From the NCBI GenBank assembly GCA_017303715.1, contig JAFLBZ010000014.1, forward strand, positions 3,708 through 67,707: a stretch of 64,000 nt of DNA. The letters run 5' to 3'. Position 1 is the first letter of the stretch. Each line of letters begins with the position of its first letter. The notes beneath the pieces are model-generated. The model saw only the letters and a list, made by a program, of their open reading frames with translations. It made no database searches and was not told the origin of the DNA. A program made the position numbers and the translations under genes. Origin of the DNA: Rhodothermia bacterium (lineage in GTDB: Bacteria; Bacteroidota; Rhodothermia; Rhodothermales; UBA2364). Below, piece by piece: positions 14,475 through 52,879 of the stretch.

Positions 14475-15851
14475 ATGTCCATTTTTTCCAGTAAAAACGT
14501 TAGCCGACTAACGCTTGTGGCGGCACTTGGCTATTTTGTGGATGTTTATGACCTCCTGTTGTTTAATGTCATTAAGGGTGATAGTCTAAAAGACCTTGGG
14601 CTTGCGGGTATCGAGAACGAGGCCGCTTTGCTCAACTTCCAAATGTTCGGGATGTTGTTAGGCGGCATCATGTGGGGGATTTTGGGAGATAAAAAAGGAC
14701 GTGTAACGGTACTTTTCGGCTCTATACTCACCTATTCAATTGCTAATTTGGCCAATGCTTTTGTGGTCGGGTTTTGGGATTATGCCTTGTGGCGGTTTAT
14801 TGCCGGATTCGGGTTGGCGGGCGAGTTGGGGGCTGGCGTGACCTTGGTTTCCGAGACCATGGAGAAGGAGAAACGAGGGATTGGGACGATGATTATCGTT
14901 TCTTTTGGCGTTTTGGGCGCTGTTGTGGCCGTTTTAGTGCATGAGGCGCTTGGATGGCAAAATGCCTTTATCGTGGGCGGGGTCATGGGACTTGCCTTGT
15001 TACTTCTACGAGCGGGCGCTTTAGAGTCTGGCATGTTTGAAGGGATCAAAAAATCCGACGCCGTAAATCGAGGAGACTTTTTTCACCTCATCACACAAGA
15101 TAAAACCATCCGTAGGATTTGGGAGGTCTTGTTACCTGTTTCGTTGCTTGCGTTCGTGCTAAGTTTTCTGTTGCCCGCATACAGCACCTTGTACCGCACC
15201 ATTTTTGGCATCTTAGGTATTGGTATTGTGGTGCAAATGGTACGAGATGCACGCTTCCGAAAATATATGTATTGTATTTTATTGGGGATGCCCATTTGGT
15301 TCGTTATTGGGATTTTGGTCTCCTTCTCCAATCGTTTTGCGGTGGTAACAGGGGTTACGGGAGATATTTTAGTGCCTACAGCCGTTGCCTTCTGCTATTT
15401 AGGACTCTCGATGGGGGATTTTGCTTCCGGTTTATTGAGCCAAAAACTCCGTAGCCGCAAAAAAGCTATTTTAGCCTTTTTGGGATTAATGACTGTCGTA
15501 GTGCTGGCCTTTTTGTTCTTGCGTGGCCTTAGCCCGACGGTTTATTACACGCTTTGTTTTCTATTGGGTTTTTCAGCGGGATATTGGGCAATTTTCGTCC
15601 AAAATGCCTCCGAGCAATTCGGAACCAACTTGCGCTCTACGGTTACGAACACCGTGCCCAATTTCGTAAGAGGGGGCTTGGTGGCCATGTCGGCGGCGTT
15701 TTTGGCACTCATCCCCAATCCTAAAGTGCCGGATATGTACTTTATCCACTCGGCGCTTATTGTGGGGGGCGTGGTGATTATAATTGCCTTGTTCTCAACG
15801 TGGGCTATTCAGGAAACTTTCTCGAAAGACTTGGACTACGTGGAGGAATAA
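14475..15851 (+). CDS. MFS transporter
   Basis: 458 aa with about 12 hydrophobic segments. GDKKGR motif in the loop 2-3 position. Confidence 0.8.
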   Translation: MSIFSSKNVSRLTLVAALGYFVDVYDLLLFNVIKGDSLKDLGLAGIENEAALLNFQMFGMLLGGIMWGILGDKKGRVTVLFGSILTYSIANLANAFVVGFWDYALWRFIAGFGLAGELGAGVTLVSETMEKEKRGIGTMIIVSFGVLGAVVAVLVHEALGWQNAFIVGGVMGLALLLLRAGALESGMFEGIKKSDAVNRGDFFHLITQDKTIRRIWEVLLPVSLLAFVLSFLLPAYSTLYRTIFGILGIGIVVQMVRDARFRKYMYCILLGMPIWFVIGILVSFSNRFAVVTGVTGDILVPTAVAFCYLGLSMGDFASGLLSQKLRSRKKAILAFLGLMTVVVLAFLFLRGLSPTVYYTLCFLLGFSAGYWAIFVQNASEQFGTNLRSTVTNTVPNFVRGGLVAMSAAFLALIPNPKVPDMYFIHSALIVGGVVIIIALFSTWAIQETFSKDLDYVEE

Positions 15852-16006: not shown

Positions 16007-17242
16007 ATGGCTTTCAAGATTGAACAACAAAAGGTAGCAAGGCGAATTACCCTTGTAGCAGCACTGGGGTATTTTGTGGATGTCTTTGATATTGTTTTGT
16101 TTAACATCGTTAAAACGGATAGCCTGCGCGATCTTAGGGTGCTGCCGGAGCATATGCTGGTGTACGAAGTGGGGTTGCTAAATTGGCAATTGGGTGGCAT
16201 GTTGGTCGGTGGCCTGATGTGGGGAATTTGGGGCGATAAAAAAGGGCGGCTTTCGGTATTGTTTGGCTCCATCATTACCTATTCATTGGCCAATATCTTT
16301 AATGCGTTTATTACCGATGTGGCTTGGTATGCGCCGTTGCGGTTTTTGGCTGGTGTGGGCTTGGCCGGCGAACTCGGAGCGGGTGTAACCTTGGTGGCCG
16401 AAACAATGGAACGGGAAAAAAGAGGCATCGGAACCATGATGATTACCGCTGTTGGGGTTTTGGGGGCGGTTTGTGCGGCTTTGGTGGGTAAGATAATGCA
16501 CTGGCAAACGGCTTATCTCATTGGCGGGTTTATGGGGCTGGCCTTGCTGTTCTTGCGGGCAGGAACCTTGGAGTCCGAGATGTTTGAGCGACTGCTGTAC
16601 AATCCCGACATCAAAAAAGGCAGTTTATGGCTTATTCTTAGGGATAAACAAAGGCTGCTGCGGTATGTTTGGGTGGTGATGATTGGCTTGCCCGTGTGGT
16701 TTTTGGGTGGAATTGTGGTTCCACAAGCCCACCGATTTGGGGAGGCTTTGGGGGTTACAGGGCCAATTTTCGTGAATGATGCTGTGATTGTTTTTTATTT
16801 GGGCATTGCCTTAGGTGATTTGCTAAGTGGTGGCCTAAGCCAGTGGTTTAAGAGTCGGAAAAAAGTTCTCATTGGGTTCCATGTGGTTTCCTTTCCGTTA
16901 TACACCTTGCTTTTTGCAACATTCGGGTTATCCCCTACGCTTTTTTATATGGTCTTGTTTTTATTGGGTGTAACGTGTGGTTTTTGGGCGGTTTTTATCT
17001 CGATGGCCGCCGAGCAATTCGGAACCAATATCCGCTCTACCGTCACGAATACCGTTCCCAATGTAGTGCGCGGTCTTACCATTCCCATGACTGGCGTCTT
17101 TTTGTGGGTCTTGCCCATCGTACATGGAAGTATGGTGCTGGCTGCGGCTTGGGTGGGCTATGGAGTCTTGGCGATCGCTTTGGTGGCAACCCTACAAGTG
17201 GAAGAAACGTTCTCCAAAGACCTTAACTATGTTGAGAAGTGA
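16007..17242 (+). CDS. MFS transporter (paralogue of the upstream gene)
   Basis: 411 aa. Near-identical stretches to the neighbour (LVAALGYFVDV.D..LFN, GDKKGR, AEQFGTNLRSTVTNTVPN, ETFSKDL.YVE). Confidence 0.8.
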   Translation: MAFKIEQQKVARRITLVAALGYFVDVFDIVLFNIVKTDSLRDLRVLPEHMLVYEVGLLNWQLGGMLVGGLMWGIWGDKKGRLSVLFGSIITYSLANIFNAFITDVAWYAPLRFLAGVGLAGELGAGVTLVAETMEREKRGIGTMMITAVGVLGAVCAALVGKIMHWQTAYLIGGFMGLALLFLRAGTLESEMFERLLYNPDIKKGSLWLILRDKQRLLRYVWVVMIGLPVWFLGGIVVPQAHRFGEALGVTGPIFVNDAVIVFYLGIALGDLLSGGLSQWFKSRKKVLIGFHVVSFPLYTLLFATFGLSPTLFYMVLFLLGVTCGFWAVFISMAAEQFGTNIRSTVTNTVPNVVRGLTIPMTGVFLWVLPIVHGSMVLAAAWVGYGVLAIALVATLQVEETFSKDLNYVEK

Positions 17243-17384
17243 GGACAAGTCGGCGGTCTTCACATCTGGCAAGCAACTCGGTTGCAAAATGGATTTTAAA
17301 TTGTTGTTTTAAAACGATCTCTACGGGGCGGGGTTGCACGCAAGGCTAAAAGCAATAGCTTGCCAGAGACGAGAAGTAAAGCGA

Positions 17385-18183
17385 TTAACTCCGTCCTTCA
17401 GGGCGGAGGCATCAAGCAAGAACTACGCATAATGCGATATTAACTCCGTCCTTCAGGGCGGAGCAGTAGGCCCGGAAATAGCCTTGGGCTTTAGCCCTGA
17501 ACGGTGGTAAAAGGCGAATGCCGTGCGCTGGAAACGGTTTTCTACGAAGATGTCACCCCTACGGGGCTTTTCTTTTCGTTTGATGTCGGCTTTCTACGAA
17601 GATGCCACCCCTACGGGGCTTTTCTTTTCGTTTGATGTCGGGTTTCTACGAAGATGTCACTCGCTGGGGCTGGGTTGTGCGTTATCATGGCTAAAGCCGG
17701 AAGGGGTGGCCGTTGCACACAGCCCCACGCTGAAGCATGGGGTTAATATGAAGCCGGAGAACAGGGGACAACGTTGCTCGTCTGAATGTGGACGTAAAGC
17801 AAGCAAAAACAATGATTAACGAAACAGCAATGTCGTCCTTCAGGGCGGGGTAGTAGGCTCCGAAATAGCCTTGGGCTTTAGCCCTGAACGATCCCCAACA
17901 TGTATGCCGTGCGCTGGGAATGGTTTTCTACGAAGATGTCACCCCTACGGGGCTGGGCTTTGCGTTTGATGTCGGCTTTCTACGAAGATGCCACCCCTAC
18001 GGGGCTTTTCTTTTCGTTTGGAATGGTTTTCTACGAAGATGCCACCCCTACGGGGCTTTTCTGTTCGTTTGGAATGGCTTTCTACGAAGATGCCATCTCG
18101 CTGGGGCTGGGTTGTGCGTTATCATGGCTAAAGCCGGAAGGGGTGGCCGTTGCACACAGCCCCACGCTGAAGCATGGGGTTAA
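17385..18183 (+). repeat. mosaic hairpin-repeat array A (two tandem composite elements holding 3 and 4 copies of a ~52-bp unit)
   Basis: Core unit tttctacgaagatg[c/t]cacccctacggggcttttcttttcgtttgatgtcggc starts near 17538, 17591, 17643, 17924, 17977, 18027 and 18079. Each composite is preceded by the hairpin ctccgtccttcagggcggag plus agtaggc.cggaaatagccttgggctttagccctgaacg. Each ends with catggctaaagccggaaggggtggccgttgcacacagccccacgctgaagcatggggttaa. Confidence 0.9.
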
Positions 18184-18391: not shown

Positions 18392-20290
18392 ATGAATCGG
18401 GAAGAGATATTTGTTGAAAACAAACGGCGGAATACAGAAGCACTGCCGTTGGGAACCATTCTTTGTGGACGCTACGAGGTGGGGCGTGTCTTAGGGCGCG
18501 GCGGTTTTGGCGTTACTTATCTCGCATGGGATCAACGCTATGAGGTTGAGGTGGCCATCAAAGAATTTTTCCCCAGTCCGAACGAAACCGGAATAGACCG
18601 CAAGGTGCAAAATGGACAAATCTTACCGGATTTAGACGTCCCCAATCGGAATATCCGTTTGGAAAATGGCCAAGTGGAACCCTTCTCGCGTCTGTTTGCA
18701 CGGGAAGTGGCAAATTTTCAGGCAGAGGCCAAGAAAATGGTCGGATTCCGGAAAATAGCCAATATCGCAACCGTAATAGACGACTTTACCGCACACAATA
18801 CCGCCTATTATGTGATGGAGTTCTACAAAGGGGAAACCCTGTGGGACGTTTGGGAAAAGGCAGATATGCAGCCTTGGTCTTTAAATAACGTGCTCAAGGT
18901 GTTGTTTCCCATGATAAAGGCACTCGAAAAAGTTCATGCAAAAGGACTGGTACACCGAGACTTTAAGCCACAAAACGTCTTGATTTGCAACGATGAGGAA
19001 GACGAAGTGGTTTTGATTGATTTTGGTCTGGCCAAGGCATTGGGCAATAGTGGCCTGATTAGTACCAAGGGGGAATTGGGAACGCCCTTGTATGCACCCT
19101 ATGAACAGCAAAGCCGGATACACAACCATGGGCCATATAGCGATGTCTATAGTGTTGCAGCCACATTTTACCAACTGTTAACCGGGGAACTGCCCAGTCT
19201 ATCGAAAGACCGCGAAGAATACGGGCGAGCGGGATATACCGACCCAATGGTCTTCCCCGAAAAAGGACTACCCAAGGGGCTAAAAAAAGTCTTGGATAAA
19301 GCCATTGCCATTTATCCAAATGACCGCTACCCAACCATGCAGGCATTTCGTGAAGCCATTGAAAATTGCCTTGGCGCCAGCGAAGAACGCTTTTTGAAGG
19401 ACATCAAAGAAGTGCTTGCCAAACCTATTGCCCCACCAAAGCCTATTGTCCCGCCCGCCAAACCCGCGCCAGAACACCGCCCGCTACAGGCCGGAGACCG
19501 CATGGTACACACCTTGGGTGGCGTAACTTTTGCCTTCCGATATTGCCCACCGACAGCAACACCCTTTATGATGGGGGATGCAACATGGGACGACGCAAAA
19601 CCCCACAAGGTACAACTGACCAAGGGTTTTTGGATGGCCGAGACCCCGATTACACAAGAGCAGTTTGCCATATTTGTACATGAGAAGAAATACCAAACAC
19701 AGGCCGAACGAGAGGGTGGTGCTTGGATATGGAATGGAAGTGAGTTCATTAAAGACCCTAAAGCAGAATGGCGAACGGTATATCCCGGTCCCAAACGCCC
19801 AGTGGTAGCGGTCTCTTGGAACGATGTAAATGCTTTTTGTGACTGGCTCTCGGAGCGATTGGGGGTGGAAGCGGCATTACCCACCGAGGCGCAGTGGGAG
19901 TATGCAGCGCGTGCAGGGGGCAAGGGAATGTATGGGCTTAACCACAAAAAACAAGAAATCACAGAAGCAACTCTCGCAGAAGTGGCTTGGTTTGGAAAAT
20001 CACTTGAAATAGGGACCAACGAGGTTGGGAAACTAAACCCCAATGCGTTTGCCTTGTATGATATGCTGGGCAATGTTTGGGAATGGTGTAGGGATGTATT
20101 TGACTCTGATTTTTATCAAGACAATCAAAAAGATCCTGTAAGTTTAACAAAAAATTCATCTGACCGTGTTGTTCGTGGGGCTTCGTTTAACGACTACTGG
20201 CGATACTTGCGTGTTGGGTTTCGTAGCCTCAGCTTCGATAATTTCAGGAACGATAAGCTCGGATTTCGCCCCCAATACATTAAGATTTGA
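18392..20290 (+). CDS. Ser/Thr protein kinase fused to an FGE-sulfatase (SUMF1-like, C-type-lectin fold) domain; DGR target protein
   Basis: 632 aa. Kinase motifs GRGGFGVTY, VAIKEF, HRDFKPQNVL, DFGLAK. Pro-rich linker KPIAPPKPIVPPAKPAP. FGE-type motifs SWNDVNAFCDWL, LPTEAQWEYAARAG, GNVWEWCRD. No TM segment seen. The last ~45 codons are the VR. Confidence 0.9.
   Translation: MNREEIFVENKRRNTEALPLGTILCGRYEVGRVLGRGGFGVTYLAWDQRYEVEVAIKEFFPSPNETGIDRKVQNGQILPDLDVPNRNIRLENGQVEPFSRLFAREVANFQAEAKKMVGFRKIANIATVIDDFTAHNTAYYVMEFYKGETLWDVWEKADMQPWSLNNVLKVLFPMIKALEKVHAKGLVHRDFKPQNVLICNDEEDEVVLIDFGLAKALGNSGLISTKGELGTPLYAPYEQQSRIHNHGPYSDVYSVAATFYQLLTGELPSLSKDREEYGRAGYTDPMVFPEKGLPKGLKKVLDKAIAIYPNDRYPTMQAFREAIENCLGASEERFLKDIKEVLAKPIAPPKPIVPPAKPAPEHRPLQAGDRMVHTLGGVTFAFRYCPPTATPFMMGDATWDDAKPHKVQLTKGFWMAETPITQEQFAIFVHEKKYQTQAEREGGAWIWNGSEFIKDPKAEWRTVYPGPKRPVVAVSWNDVNAFCDWLSERLGVEAALPTEAQWEYAARAGGKGMYGLNHKKQEITEATLAEVAWFGKSLEIGTNEVGKLNPNAFALYDMLGNVWEWCRDVFDSDFYQDNQKDPVSLTKNSSDRVVRGASFNDYWRYLRVGFRSLSFDNFRNDKLGFRPQYIKI
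20156..20279 (+). repeat. DGR variable repeat (VR)
   Basis: 124 bp collinear with 22116-22239. All mismatches correspond to A in the template copy. The core boundary 20162-20279 is firm. The first 6 bp are less certain. Confidence 0.9.
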
Positions 20291-20300
20291 CAATTTTACT

Positions 20301-20326
20301 TTTTTAAAATTTATAAATTTTAAAAA
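20301..20326. repeat. perfect 26-bp A/T palindrome immediately downstream of the VR and target stop codon
   Basis: tttttaaaatttataaattttaaaaa is its own reverse complement. It lies 11 nt after the stop at 20290. Confidence 0.85.
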
Positions 20327-20357
20327 TTTTTTACATTTTTCCAAATGTTAAATTCTT

Positions 20358-20714
20358 ATGAATCCGAATACTCAACCCGTTGTTATTCTTACGAAGTGGT
20401 ACGACTTTGTGTTTTGGATGACACAGAAGGTGCAGCATTACCCTAAGTCCTATAAATATACGCTGGGAGACCGGATTCAAACGCAAATGTTAGACATCTT
20501 GGAAATGTTTGTTGTTGCCCAATACAATAAGGAACAACGAAAACAAACCCTACGACACATCAATATTGCGATCGAAAGACTGCGATATTTAATTAGGTTG
20601 TCAAAAGACCTTCATTGTTTATCAATGGCACACTATGAGTTTGCCGCAAAGCAAATGTTGGAATTAGGAAAAATGGTTGGAGGTTGGGAAAAGCAATATG
20701 CCACGACAATTTAG
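20358..20714 (+). CDS. avd: Avd-like four-helix-bundle protein (DGR accessory variability determinant)
   Basis: 118 aa. Helical and basic, with the pattern W..F..W......PK..KYTLGDRI......IL typical of the four-helix-bundle/Avd family. Sits between the VR and the RT and overlaps the RT start. Confidence 0.8.
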   Translation: MNPNTQPVVILTKWYDFVFWMTQKVQHYPKSYKYTLGDRIQTQMLDILEMFVVAQYNKEQRKQTLRHINIAIERLRYLIRLSKDLHCLSMAHYEFAAKQMLELGKMVGGWEKQYATTI

Positions 20715-22099
20715 CAATTTGTATCCTGATATATGTACTTTTGAAAATCTATGGAAAGCGTTTCGTTATGCTCGGCGTGGGAAGCGTCATAAGCTCGAAG
20801 TCTCGATGTTTGAGCAAGACTTAGAGCGACATCTTTTCGAGATTCAGGAGGCATTAATCTCGCATAATTTCCATTTTCAAGGTTATCGTTCGTTCATCAT
20901 TACAGATCCTAAGGAGCGAGTTATTTCTGCTGCCCCCTTTCGGGATCGGGTTGTACATCATGCCATTTGCAATGTATTGGCTCCTTTAATGGATATGGCT
21001 CTTTTGGAGAATGTATATGCCTGCCGAACGGGTAAGGGTACCCATTTGGCCATTAAAAAAGCTGTGTCCTAAAAGGATTTTAATGCTTAAACGTGCGTTA
21101 TGGGTTAATGAAGTGGAAGCCTACAAAAGCCATTCCCTGCCTCAAGAGCGTCATGTAAGAACTCATGGGATTGCATAAATTCCGGTTTTACAAGGGTTTG
21201 TTCTACTTTTTAATGAGCGGTAAAGCCCCGTAGGGGTGATATCTTACTAGAAATCGGTTTCCAAATGCACAACAAAGCCCCGTAGGGGTGACATCTTTAC
21301 ATGACGAGGAAAAGCTGGTTGATCGTACCAAAGCCATCAATGTTGGCAGAGTCAGCCGAAATCCGGTGGCTGATCTATCCGACTGATTTTTCTAAGGGTC
21401 GCCCTGCCATTATTGGACAACACATCATACTATAAGATAGAGGCGATCACAATAACGAAGCTGTCTAATAGGTTTTTAGATGATCAGGTAATGGGTTTGA
21501 TCTCGAAGTTATTAGCAACATACCATTCCGATATATCCTACTATTTTCGTTTCCCGCAGGATAATTTGTTTGATGCGGCACGTCCAAGAGGATTGCCCAT
21601 TGGAAACTTAACCAGCCAATGGTTTGCAAATTTTTATCTCAATTCTATTGACCGCTTGATTAAGCAAAAGTTGAAATTACCCGGTTACGTCCGCTATATG
21701 GATGATTTTGTCCTATTTGCGGATTCTAAAGAAGACCTTTTTCATGCACAAGAAGAGGTAAAAAAAGCATTGAGTTTACTTAGGCTCCAACTTAATGATA
21801 AAAAAACGCAGATATTTCCAGTGAAAAATGGATTTCCCTTTTTGGGGCTTTACTTACGGCAAGATCGCCTACGTATTTTAAGAAATAACCTCAAGAGCAT
21901 AAAGCAAAGGCTTAGGCATCAAGCAAAAAAAATGCGAAGAGATCAAAATCTACAGCATGTAACACAATCTCTTCAAGCATGGACTGGATATTATGGACGG
22001 AAGCAGTTTCAATACATCTTCGATGAAATTCTTTCTAAACAGAGTTTTTACCGCGATGATTTAAAACAATGCTTCACCTTCACCTTAACTTATGGCTAA
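20698..22099 (+). pseudogene. DGR reverse transcriptase, reading frame interrupted (two ORF pieces, 20677/20698-21072 and 21413-22099)
   Basis: The N-terminal piece has FENLWKAFRYARRGKR, ISAAPFRDRVVHHAICNVL and ACRTGKGTH. The C-terminal piece has RGLPIGNLTSQWFANFYL (DGR-type motif 4) and YVRYMDDFVLF (YMDD). The pieces are in different frames and are separated by 340 nt containing stop codons and repeat units. Confidence 0.8.
21073..21300 (-). mobile_element. insertion within the RT gene carrying two inverted copies of the dispersed hairpin repeat (MITE-like)
   Basis: aaagccccgtaggggtgatatctt (21222-21245) and aaagccccgtaggggtgacatctt (21274-21297) are reverse complements of the array core aagatg.cacccctacggggcttt. 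The spacer ctagaaatcggtttccaaatg resembles the reverse complement of the array spacer. The RT N-terminal frame reopens at 21292. The exact ends are not determined. Confidence 0.55.
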
Positions 22100-22115
22100 A
22101 GGGATTTACCGATAG

Positions 22116-22239
22116 AAATCTAACCGTGTTGTTCGTGGGGCTTCGTTTAACAACAACAAGCAAAACTTGCGTGTTGGGTATCGTAACAACAACAACGATA
22201 ATAACAGGAACAATAAACTCGGATTTCGCCCCCAATACA
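22116..22239 (+). repeat. DGR template repeat (TR)
   Basis: Non-coding copy of the VR, 17 nt after the RT stop. It is adenine-rich with AAC-type codons in the VR frame (caacaacaagcaaaac, aacaacaacaacgataataac). Homology ends at 22240 (C versus T in the VR). Confidence 0.9.
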
Positions 22240-22337
22240 CAAAACATAAATCTCTCCTAACGGTTTGTGCTATGTGTGGTGTGTGTTTTGTCGCTTACGG
22301 GTTACAAAAGTGAGCCATTGTTGTATAGGTAAATTCC

Positions 22338-22370
22338 TGCTTCGACGAAAGTCGAGGCAAAGTTCTTTTT
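22338..22370 (+). terminator. GAAA-tetraloop hairpin plus T-run downstream of the TR (terminator or DGR RNA 3' structure)
   Basis: tgcttcgac-gaaa-gtcgaggca gives a 9-bp stem with one G-T, followed by aagttcttttt. Confidence 0.5.
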
Positions 22371-22416
22371 GGCCCTTATCCTTCGAGATCGGGGCCATTT
22401 TTTAATCCCCAATCGT

Positions 22417-23322
22417 ATGCCGCAGCAAAACCAAGATCAACGTCCCCAAGTATCTGCCCTTGTGTCTGCCCTTTTGCAAGCAATGGAATCCGGCCAAGAA
22501 GTCTATATTGCCAATCTCAAGGCAGTGGTTCCACATTGTTTTAGGATCCATATGCACCATGAAGCCTACGACCAGATGCGCCCCCACTTCACACATTTTA
22601 AGGTTATTGCGATGCAAGAGCTTGATAAGCGTTTAGAGGCTTTGAAAAAACAAGGCATCGGTGATTTTTGGGCTAAAATATGGCGTTTGATACGGGGTGT
22701 TGTCCTCAAACAGCCTTTACCGAAATTGGAAATCTCGACATTGGGGCGATGGGAAATAGAGGTGATTCAGGCATTTGACCTTGATTTGCCGATGGGGTAT
22801 TTGCGCGTGGAGGCTGGTTTTTCCTCGATTGGTAAGCCCAGCTCCCTTTCCGAATCGGTGTTTATGGGCGCTCAAACCAAAGGATTGTCTTTTATGGTAC
22901 AGGGAGATCAAGCCCTAAAAACGGCTCCCTTGGCTGGCGGCATGGCCGCAACAAGTCCATCACCACAAACCGAAGAAGATGTTTTTGCTACCTTGTCTTG
23001 GATGAACCCAGCCACCCAGTCCGAGCAACAATTTCACATCAAAACGCCCTACTTGGCCATTGGGCGGGAAGGTGCATCGGATGCGGAGTACGCACATCTG
23101 CCCGTCCTCCGGCTTTCGGGTGTTCCTGCGGAAATCTCAAGGGTACATGGCTATTTTCAGTATAAGGCCACAGAAGGCACGTTCCGCTTTAAAAACTTGG
23201 GACTACATGGCACAACCATCCTGCCACCCGCCAGAGAAACGGAGGACGGATGGGCGATTCTTGCCCCTAATTGTAGATTGTGTTTAGGAAATAAGTTGTT
23301 TGTGGATTTTGCTCAACGATGA
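22417..23322 (+). CDS. FhaA-like protein: DUF3662-like N-terminal region plus a C-terminal FHA domain
   Basis: The ORF track starts at 22369 (TTG). The ATG at 22417 (MPQQNQ) is preferred. The N-terminal part has VPHCFRIHMHHEAYDQM, resembling the DUF3662 VPN.F.V.LS..DY motif. The C-terminus has FHA-like YLAIGREGASD...ISRVHGYFQY...FRFKNLGLHGTTI. Confidence 0.65.
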   Translation: MPQQNQDQRPQVSALVSALLQAMESGQEVYIANLKAVVPHCFRIHMHHEAYDQMRPHFTHFKVIAMQELDKRLEALKKQGIGDFWAKIWRLIRGVVLKQPLPKLEISTLGRWEIEVIQAFDLDLPMGYLRVEAGFSSIGKPSSLSESVFMGAQTKGLSFMVQGDQALKTAPLAGGMAATSPSPQTEEDVFATLSWMNPATQSEQQFHIKTPYLAIGREGASDAEYAHLPVLRLSGVPAEISRVHGYFQYKATEGTFRFKNLGLHGTTILPPARETEDGWAILAPNCRLCLGNKLFVDFAQR

Positions 23323-23399
23323 AGGGGGATTTTTGCAGGGTTTTAGGACTTTGTTGGGTTGTGATGAGGTTGGTGGTTGGCTTGGGCTATGCACCGCTT

Positions 23400-23885
23400 A
23401 TTACCCGTCGTAGGAAGATGCCACCCCGCTGGGGCTTTTCTTTGTACCGGGAATGGTTTTCTACGAAGATGCCACCCCTACGGGGCTTTCCTTTTCGTTT
23501 GATGTCGGCTTTCTACGAAGATGTCACCCCTACGGGGCTGGGCTTTGCGTTTGATGTCGGCTTTCTACGAAGATGCCACCCCTACGGGGCTTTTCTTTTC
23601 GTTTGATGTCGGCTTTCTACGAAGATGCCACCCCTACGGGGCTTTTCTTTTCGTTTGATGTCGGCTTTCTACGAAGATGTCGCTCGCTGGGGCTGGGTTG
23701 TGCGTTTGATGTCGGGTTTCTACGAAGATGCCATCTCGCTGGGGCTGTGCTTGGTCATGGCTAAAGCCGGAAGGGGTGGCCGTTGCACACAGCCCCACGC
23801 TGAAGCATGGGGTTAATATGAAGCCGGAGAACAGGGGACAACGTTGCTCGTCTGAATGTGGGCATAAAGCAAGCAAAAACAAATC
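23400..23885 (+). repeat. mosaic hairpin-repeat array B (7 copies of the ~52-bp unit plus the same terminal module)
   Basis: Units start near 23409, 23457, 23510, 23562, 23614, 23666 and 23717. The terminal module catggctaaagccggaaggggtggccgttgcacacagccccacgctgaagcatggggttaatatgaagccggagaacaggggacaacgttgctcgtctgaatgtgg is nearly identical to 17688-17800. Confidence 0.9.
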
Positions 23886-26308: not shown

Positions 26309-26725
26309 GTATCCAGCCGGACCATCGCCCGATAATTGCGGGAGGAAAGTCCGAACACCATAGGGCAACATGCTTCCTAACGGGAAGGCAACTGCTTGTT
26401 AAAGTTCTTTTGCAAGCGGTTGACAGCAAGTGCAACAGAAAATATTCCCGCCGATGGCCTTTCGGGGTACAGGTAAGGGGTGAAATGGTAGGGTAAGAGC
26501 CTACCAGCACATTGGGTGACCATTTGTGGCTGGGCAAACCTCATGTGGTGAAAGACCAAGCAGTGTAAGTTGCCCCTAAAGGGTGACACGGGCGGCCCGT
26601 CCGGAACTCCTTACACGGGTAGGTTGATAGAGGCGGTCAGTGATGGCCGTCCCAGATAAATGATGGTCTCCCCATTTCGAGCGACCATAAGTGGGCAGAC
26701 AGAATTCGGCTTATAGGCTGGACAT
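26309..26725 (+). ncRNA. rnpB: RNase P RNA, bacterial type A
   Basis: Conserved blocks gggaggaaagtccgaacac, gcaacagaaaa, ggtaaggggtgaaatggtagggtaagagcctaccag and agacagaattcggcttataggctgga. The 5' tccagcc pairs with the 3' ggctgga (P1). The ends are good to about +/-5 nt. Confidence 0.9.
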
Positions 26726-26739
26726 CGTGGTCGTATTTC

Positions 26740-52753: not shown

Positions 52754-52879
52754 ATTTTACCTGACCTCTAAATGATTTTACCTGACCTCTAAATGATTTT
52801 ACCTGACCTCTAAATGATTTTACCTGACCTCTAAATGATTTTACCTGACCTCTAAATGATTTTACCTGACCTCTAAATG
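52754..52879. repeat. perfect tandem repeat, 6 x 21 bp (attttacctgacctctaaatg)
   Basis: Counted directly. Units start at 52754, 52775, 52796, 52817, 52838 and 52859 with no mismatches. The array lies about 80-230 nt upstream of the minus-strand operon start. Confidence 0.95.

Follow-up and report, generated by a model that had tools for sequence, protein, structure and literature searches.

Direct repeat arrays bracketing a DGR in a Rhodothermia bacterium are probably locally amplified REP-like clusters associated with a Y1 transposase

Introduction

A DGR cassette that lies between long tracts of one repeat family, all in the same orientation, raises the question of whether the repeats belong to the DGR or only share its location. 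We address this question for a 64-kb stretch of a Rhodothermia bacterium genome (the window; 64,000 nucleotides, numbered from its first base), in which arrays at 17.4–18.2 kb and a third composite at 23.4 kb bracket a DGR in direct orientation. An earlier note on this DNA had offered three readings: the cassette sits in a hotspot of repeat proliferation, it is prone to deletion or duplication by recombination between the arrays, or the repeats travelled with it.

Results

Layout of the arrays in the window

Region 23400–23885 consists, on the + strand, of seven head-to-tail units of ~52 bp followed by the terminal module and tail known from 17.7 kb. The units start at 23407, 23459, 23511, 23563, 23615, 23667, and 23718 (period 51–52 bp), the first and the last two of the seven being variants, and TRF reports a 52-bp-period array at 23458–23733. 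The 60-nt terminal module (ATGGCTAAAGCC...CATGGGGTTAA) is present in three mismatch-free copies, all on the + strand (17687–17746, 18124–18183, and 23757–23816), and the tail of composite 3, which extends to ~23885, has its counterpart at 17747–17812 in composite 1. Composites 1 and 3 match perfectly over at most 107 bp (17685–17791 = 23755–23861), and composites 2 and 3 over at most 96 bp, within the unit arrays; the 30-nt core and the 60-nt module gave no chance match in 100 shuffles. The array observation is correct and far beyond chance. TRF, pattern searches, alignment, and the unit table agree on the third composite as the earlier note had described it, with seven copies of the ~52-bp unit and then the terminal module and tail. 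The coordinates of all features are collected in Table 1.

The entire window was searched with a covariance model of the unit, filters off, which gave 16 units in total: seven on the + strand at 17539–18109, seven on the + strand at 23415–23748, and two on the − strand at 21222–21298, in the gap of the RT gene. All 16 fall inside 6.2 kb around the DGR, and the same search returned no further unit with E < 2 in the window. Model and alignment concur with the earlier description of three + strand composites flanking the DGR segment as long direct repeats, and the model likewise leaves the copies that disrupt the RT as the only inverted ones. The arrays sit just 3′ of an MFS gene and of ORF 22369–23322, composite 3 starting 78–85 bp past the stop of the latter. 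Other small hairpin modules are joined to the unit arrays, namely CTCCGTCC-TTCA-GGGCGGAG, GGGC-TTTA-GCCC, and the terminal module, so that the composites are BIME-like mosaics; the DNA fold of the composite 1 head (17384–17534) has z = −2.7. We rejected the idea that one older composite had been split by insertion of the cassette, as composite 2 has head, units, and module without a tail, and composite 3 has units, module, and tail without a head.

Table 1 Features of the DGR region and its repeat arrays (window coordinates)
Feature	Coordinates	Strand	Basis or detail
Composite 1 head	17384..17534	+	hairpin module ATTAACTCCGTCCTTCAGGGCGGAG at 17384-17408 and 17439-17463; GGGC-TTTA-GCCC module; repeat families D8, D9
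Composite 1 units	17539..17686	+	three head-to-tail 52-bp units (TTTCTACGAAGATGYCACCCCTACGGGGCT plus T-rich spacer); the last is a variant
Composite 1 terminal module (60 nt) and tail	17687..17812	+	107 bp perfectly identical to 23755-23861
Composite 2	17800..18183	+	head, four units 17925-18123, terminal module 18124-18183; no tail
DGR target gene, Ser/Thr kinase fused to FGE-sulfatase/C-type-lectin fold	18392..20290	+	Pfam
VR	20158-20279	+	repeat pair D5 with TR
avd (bAvd)	20358..20714	+	Pfam, 1.3e-21
DGR RT gene, 5′ part	20698..21070	+	collinear with intact 364-aa RT of L003, L004
Composite of the unit family inside RT (382 bp)	21071..21452	-	inverted units 21222-21253, 21274-21298; replaces 75-76 bp of RT
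RT gene, 3′ part	21453..22099	+	Pfam RVT_1
Template repeat (TR)	22118..22239	+	pair with VR
Accessory ORF, 317 aa	22369..23322	+	conserved beside RT in L123, L003, L004, L006
Composite 3 units	23407..23756	+	seven head-to-tail units
Composite 3 terminal module (23757-23816) and tail	23757..23885	+	module identical to copies in composites 1, 2

Every short-read contig of the locus stops at the arrays, and repeat-rich regions are error-prone, which could suggest that mis-joined or collapsed repeats merely simulate the bracketing. We regard such an assembly artefact as scarcely credible, because independent assemblies from at least six samples end at the same window coordinates, with Avd-bearing contigs stopping at 18099–18154 and 23422–23436 and flanking-gene contigs at ~17377 and ~23866. 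Given these shared end points, the junctions of unique sequence and repeats are the same as in the window; the unit variants are, moreover, ordered and differ between composites. The arrays in turn account for the breaks that short-read assemblies of these genomes show at such sites.

Two further features of the window are recorded here. Directly to the left of the arrays, two paralogous neighbouring MFS transporter genes (14475–15851 and 16007–17242) share ~71–72% DNA identity in stretches. An intergenic perfect tandem of six 21-bp units (ATTTTACCTGACCTCTAAATG) lies at 52754–52879, upstream of an amidase gene, and is unrelated to the 52-bp family.

A genuine DGR whose RT gene is disrupted in some strains

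TR and VR differ at 18 positions, and 18 of these 18 mismatches fall on TR adenines. The bracketed segment is therefore a genuine DGR. The kinase-FGE gene, avd, RT, and TR named in the earlier note are all present, but its FHA label for ORF 22369–23322 lacks Pfam support: Pfam detected no FHA domain there, the best match being an unrelated DUF at E = 0.055. By eye, the C-terminus of this ORF is FHA-like (GR...ISRVHG...LHGT...LG); the ORF is 82% identical to its copy in the related locus L123. The rest of the window is housekeeping (nuo operon, RNase P RNA, 2-oxoglutarate dehydrogenase, and RecQ), close homologues of the window VKOR-DsbA protein are from Rhodothermales, and the scanned window ORFs include no transposase or integrase gene. 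The RNase P RNA at 26309–26729 is of bacterial class A (238 bits), and its 421 nt on a 367-position model imply insertions.

Exact breakpoint mapping placed the RT stretch that was replaced at L003 2765–2839 (lost region ...MDIKKYFYTIDHEIL...) and revealed neither a recognisable target duplication nor a tetranucleotide target. A simple insertion was thereby rejected in favour of a replacement of 75–76 bp by 382 bp. Contigs with an identical Avd are available from at least six public assemblies, and the RT is intact (364 aa) in L003 and L004 and split in L005–L008. The gene is also uninterrupted in L123, a relative with 86% RT identity. Since L123, L003, and L004 keep the uninterrupted gene, the disruption is the derived state. 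One composite of the unit family has thus inactivated the RT, and with it the DGR, in this strain. That the 382-bp composite replaced the RT stretch here but not in L003 or L004 marks the unit family as mobile or invasive.

The RT composite has only its two units in common with composites 1–3. An element of another organism, at a non-RT locus (L088), matches it with 80% identity over 298 bp, and at least seven contigs of the organism of metagenome Ga0209573 carry partial homologues of the RT composite, none of them in RT genes. In the Ga0209573 organism, a ~24-bp tandem repeat (GCTGAGCCAAGTCGAAGCCCGGCG, at least five copies) lies inside composites beside 52-bp units (L024 13190–13340). Compared with the window, VR has 22 differences in L003, 18 in L005 and L008, and none in L007, only at TR-adenine positions. 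The disrupted-RT alleles carry at least two different VRs, and diversification therefore either preceded the disruption or was supplied in trans.

The unit is a tag-plus-hairpin motif with conserved pairing

The core of the unit is [C/T]TAC-N-AAGAT, followed after ~3–4 nt by a short GC hairpin; in the window it takes the form of the tag TTTCTAC-N-AAGAT, a linker of ~3–4 nt, a CCCC-TAC-GGGG hairpin, and a T-rich spacer. A slightly degenerate core matches 105 metagenome stretches of 31–66% GC, in which the copies are almost all intergenic and often spaced at ~46–58 bp. At 155 of the 207 TAC-N-AAGAT anchors in the retrieved DNA, a perfect stem of 4 bp or more follows within 6 nt, compared with 10% of random positions. 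The stems are of at least 12 types (for example CCCC/GGGG, GCTCC/GGAGC, TAGCCTC/GAGGCTA, GTCCC/GGGAC, GGGC/GCCC, and GCAGC/GCTGC), with double-sided changes in three of the four core pairs. Because so many different stem sequences keep their pairing, the stem covaries: pairing is conserved rather than sequence.

Related organisms hold dozens of dispersed intergenic copies of the unit, and in one of them, the Ga0209573 organism, homologous composites are dispersed over at least seven contigs. In the more distant organism Ga0209570, units lie within an element of ~190 bp whose termini are inverted and which shows an apparent 9–10-bp duplication, from which it follows that more than one kind of small element carries the family. 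The exact 22-nt core, searched in a set with one genome per species to which the source genome does not belong, had two single-copy matches, both in unrelated high-GC MAGs. A literature search with the motif as a text string returned primers only.

Several known identities were tried and rejected. Rfam gave no match at E ≤ 10 in 17.0–24.2 kb, RNase P was alone in reaching the gathering score in the whole window, and the unit-bearing related loci gave no credible matches; neither the array nor the terminal module nor single units folded better than shuffles, as RNA or as DNA. On these two grounds, a structured RNA or sRNA array was rejected. The unit hairpin, with its 4-bp stem, fails the standard pattern of intrinsic terminators. 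A CRISPR array was dismissed, as the 22-nt 'spacers' are themselves repeated and no cas genes occur among the scanned window ORFs; likewise, the Cas12a-repeat likeness of TTTCTACTAAGATGTAG was judged coincidental, the GTAG half being missing from most variants. Integron attC-like sites were discarded, as the module boundary does not match a core site and no integrase occurs. A cyanobacterial origin, first suggested by the kinase-FGE DGR, and with it cyanobacterial repeat families were ruled out by the presence of NuoEFG in complex I and by best protein matches in Rhodothermia/Rhodothermales.

Units flank Y1 transposase genes in several lineages

All DNA retrieved for the analysis was screened for HUH and Y motifs. 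At L066, L082, and L099, a 153-aa ORF lies 24–26 bp from a unit and matches Pfam Y1_Tnp (4e-25) and the NCBIfam IS200/IS605 transposase model (73 bits; cut-off 55). This Y1 gene has an inverted unit upstream (hairpin, then ATCTTTGTAG) and two or three direct units downstream. Its homologues at L101 (69% identity) and at L040 and L090 (59%) have matching inverted and direct flanks with diverged units, and L115 and L083 are internal-deletion derivatives that kept their ends. Thus, a Y1 gene with unit flanks occurs in three independent lineages (L099/L082/L066, at L099 797–1448; L101; and L040/L090). By contrast, the palindromes that flank a RAYT gene at L058 differ in sequence from the unit, and this enzyme was rejected as the driver.

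The protein signature Y---Q--HH, together with DH[IV]H and WQ, assigns the transposase to TnpA_Y1 subclass 1.2. A profile search found thousands of such Y1 proteins, including ones from Melioribacter, Ignavibacteria, Flavobacterium, Calditrichaceae, and Chlorobi. The complete Melioribacter roseus P3M-2 genome (L127; CP003557, ~1494125–1497586) has 13 model-positive units within ~1.2 kb around a Y1 gene, several of them in tandem at ~49-bp spacing. Based on these associations, we read the 52-bp unit as a putative member of a REP-like family cognate to IS200-like Y1 transposases of subclass 1.2 in Bacteroidota and the wider FCB group. The 64-kb window itself has no Y1 transposase gene, and a trans-acting Y1 enzyme in the source organism is assumed.

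The link between units and DGRs is not general

We gave a real association between units and DGRs a low prior. The earlier note had suggested a test for enrichment near retroelements; a DGR RT or Avd gene was found in the flanks of 0 of 105 unit-bearing loci. It had also suggested comparing synteny in relatives. The VKOR-DsbA relative with 86% identity (GCA_016788705.1) has neither DGR nor units beside VKOR, where its neighbours include Haem_bd and LprI. L123 has only 20279–23324 in common with the window and lies in another neighbourhood (Peptidase_S9, L27/L21), with one unit 24 bp past the last gene and another ~400 bp further. The DGR site is a synteny breakpoint. No target gene adjoins the block in the L123 assembly: over L123 1–126, at a contig end, homology starts exactly at the VR end, and upstream of it an N-terminus on the opposite strand (MKYDQWLKNPIRFLAMTGYTLEQF...) looks like that of an IS transposase.

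More distant DGR relatives differ in what accompanies them. L124–126 (54% RT identity) carry four 54-bp units ~450 bp after TR, homologous over the whole unit length and with a compensatory change of the hairpin to GGGC-TAAC-GCCC. L129–131 (48% RT identity, FGE target) carry a canonical RAYT gene (NF047646, 93.8 bits) directly after TR (L129 7578–8075; L130 2943–3440; L131 2160–2657), flanked by its own ~77-bp direct repeats, which are unrelated to the unit. No units were found in DGR relatives L132–L137 (46–49% RT identity); those designated P0119 and P0129 lack units. Units at the 3′ side in two DGR lineages (the window with L123, and L124–126) are more than a low background density would predict. 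Nevertheless, with units near only two of five related DGR lineages, no TR or VR similarity in the arrays, and the null result at the 105 loci, we rejected the arrays as a DGR component (TR, VR, IMH, or conserved flanking element). The link is not general, and, on balance, we take units and DGR as a co-occurrence of two accessory kinds of DNA in variable intergenic space.

The same relatives bear on the possibility that the arrays belong to a mobile cassette, in which Y1 action or array recombination would relocate or exchange the DGR, or just its avd-RT-TR-ORF block, along with flanking units. We consider this unlikely. The L123 block does have units at its 3′ end despite its different neighbourhood, but the apparent IS transposase start upstream of the L123 avd indicates that this context may be a secondary rearrangement, and the shared block begins only at the VR end, whereas the left arrays of the window lie upstream of the target gene. 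The four-unit array after TR in L124–126 and the RAYT after TR in L129–131 point in the same direction as L123, but the latter enzyme has unrelated repeats, and the P0119 and P0129 DGR relatives have no units. IS200-type enzymes use same-strand ends, and all 14 flanking units are on one strand; yet Y1 genes naturally have their units in inverted rather than direct arrangement, and the 105 unit loci offered neither RT nor Avd. A stronger version, in which the units are functional Y1 (HUH) ends and the same-strand arrays make the whole DGR cassette mobilisable or excisable cargo, strikes us as very unlikely; if true, it would explain avd-RT-TR-ORF blocks in differing neighbourhoods with 3′ units and a RAYT after TR. 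The earlier suggestion that the repeats travelled with the cassette is thus weakly supported at most: units at the L123 3′ end and the L124–126 array favour it, and the null result at the 105 loci and the three relatives without units oppose it.

Discussion

Hotspot proliferation is the best-supported of the three readings in the earlier note, with all 16 units within 6.2 kb, a polymorphic composite in the RT, and a synteny breakpoint. We consider it reasonably likely that the arrays are transposase-associated REP-like clusters that were amplified locally, rather than DGR machinery, and that they bracket the DGR because the repeats proliferated locally in a variable part of the chromosome; in the same likelihood we include that they are REP/BIME-like repeats of a Y1 transposase, a variant with unusual geometry. 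In the history we propose, a Y1 enzyme supplied in trans and working on hairpins in single-stranded DNA would have seeded units or composites in non-essential intergenic space, and the seeded units would then have expanded via slippage or unequal exchange. Local copying or homogenisation of the arrays may have followed, which would account for the 107 bp over which the left and right arrays are perfectly identical. Of the 16 units, 14 have the order tag then hairpin on the + strand. Because this strand is G-rich throughout the window, it probably serves as the lagging-strand template, an arrangement that would be well matched to single-strand processing. Some evidence speaks against this reading: there is no Y1 gene in the 64 kb, the RT replacement is unlike a clean IS200-type insertion, the units fail strict REP criteria, and all window units cluster at the DGR. 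As to the remaining reading in the earlier note, rearrangement by recombination, direct repeats that match perfectly over 96–107 bp and nearly so over several hundred bp make it plausible that the cassette of 5.6–6.1 kb could be deleted through homologous recombination.

The arrays might instead be selected host cis-elements that insulate the cassette as stacked terminators, RNA-stabilising hairpins, or nucleoid-protein sites. Enterobacterial REPs and BIMEs have such secondary roles (PMC2817692, PMC3733652), a T-rich run follows the GC hairpin of every unit, and both the MFS gene and ORF 22369–23322 have arrays directly past their 3′ ends. The gene upstream of a unit is also co-oriented with it about twice as frequently as it is opposed (55 versus 26 at the 105 loci). 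However, the 4-bp stem misses the standard intrinsic-terminator pattern and the folds do no better than shuffles, while seven copies with extra modules exceed termination needs. Since the family also inserts into and destroys a gene, and the conserved tag and the Y1 association point to a selfish or enzyme-driven origin, we judge a selected host function to be improbable.

Under the reading that we prefer, clusters of a Y1-associated repeat, an apparent structural feature of the DGR is reclassified as ordinary repeat proliferation. The unit family has also killed the DGR RT in some strains of a natural population and not in others. The unit would define a REP-like family across Bacteroidota/FCB, with a tag 9–10 nt from a very short hairpin and a head-to-tail period of ~50 bp, and it offers a concrete DNA substrate for probing Y1 transposases that are low-copy and probably domesticated.

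How the family relates to known systems can be set out from the DGR outward. Like cyanobacterial-type kinase-FGE DGR cassettes, the window has a kinase-FGE target, Avd, RT, TR, and adenine-specific VR differences. It is unlike them in its tag-hairpin arrays, which are no described component of such cassettes and are absent in three of the five related DGR lineages inspected.

IS200/IS605 elements and their non-autonomous PATE/MITE-like derivatives share with the units subterminal hairpins and a conserved tetranucleotide located a constant distance to the 5′ side of the hairpin. The tetranucleotide of IS608 is TTAC, to be compared with [C/T]TAC in the unit family. The window composites have no long terminal inverted repeats, and the end-keeping deletion derivatives L115 and L083 also fit this group. 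The RT event differs in being a replacement of 75–76 bp, and the inverted termini and 9–10-bp duplication of the Ga0209570 element are not IS200-like.

Another close parallel is with REPs and BIMEs and their RAYT (TnpA_REP) (Nunvar 2010 PMC2817692; Di Nocera 2013 PMC3733652; Ton-Hoang 2012), which share GC-rich extragenic hairpins, a tetranucleotide tag, clusters mixed with small motifs and possible head-tail reiterations, and the inverted flanking of a single-copy Y1 HUH transposase gene. The shared tag is conserved and reads GTAG on one strand and CTAC on the other. Inverted flanking was found in L099/L082/L066, L101, L040/L090, and Melioribacter roseus (L127), and the hairpin shows pairing-preserving variation (155/207 anchors, at least 12 stem types). 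The definition of REPs requires a GTAG/GTGG tag 0–2 nt 5′ of the basal stem and 7–20 paired nt (PMC6006769). The window units depart from this strict form, with a CTAC tag 9–10 nt from a 4–5-bp stem, and stems in the unit family measure 4–7 bp, compared with 7–20 bp in REPs. BIMEs alternate in orientation with fixed linkers, whereas the units run head-to-tail on one strand per array at a regular period of ~50–58 bp. The associated enzyme scores as IS200-like (subclass 1.2) and not as a canonical RAYT.

Finally, the unit-flanked Y1 genes share with TnpA_Y1 subclass 1.2 as published (PMC6006769) its signature, its Bacteroidetes/FCB range, and its low copy number. Quentin et al. 2018 (PMC6006769) described this subclass as generally without associated secondary structures and reported no cognate structures for it; here, by contrast, the genes are flanked by clusters of tag plus hairpin, which tie the family physically to subclass 1.2.
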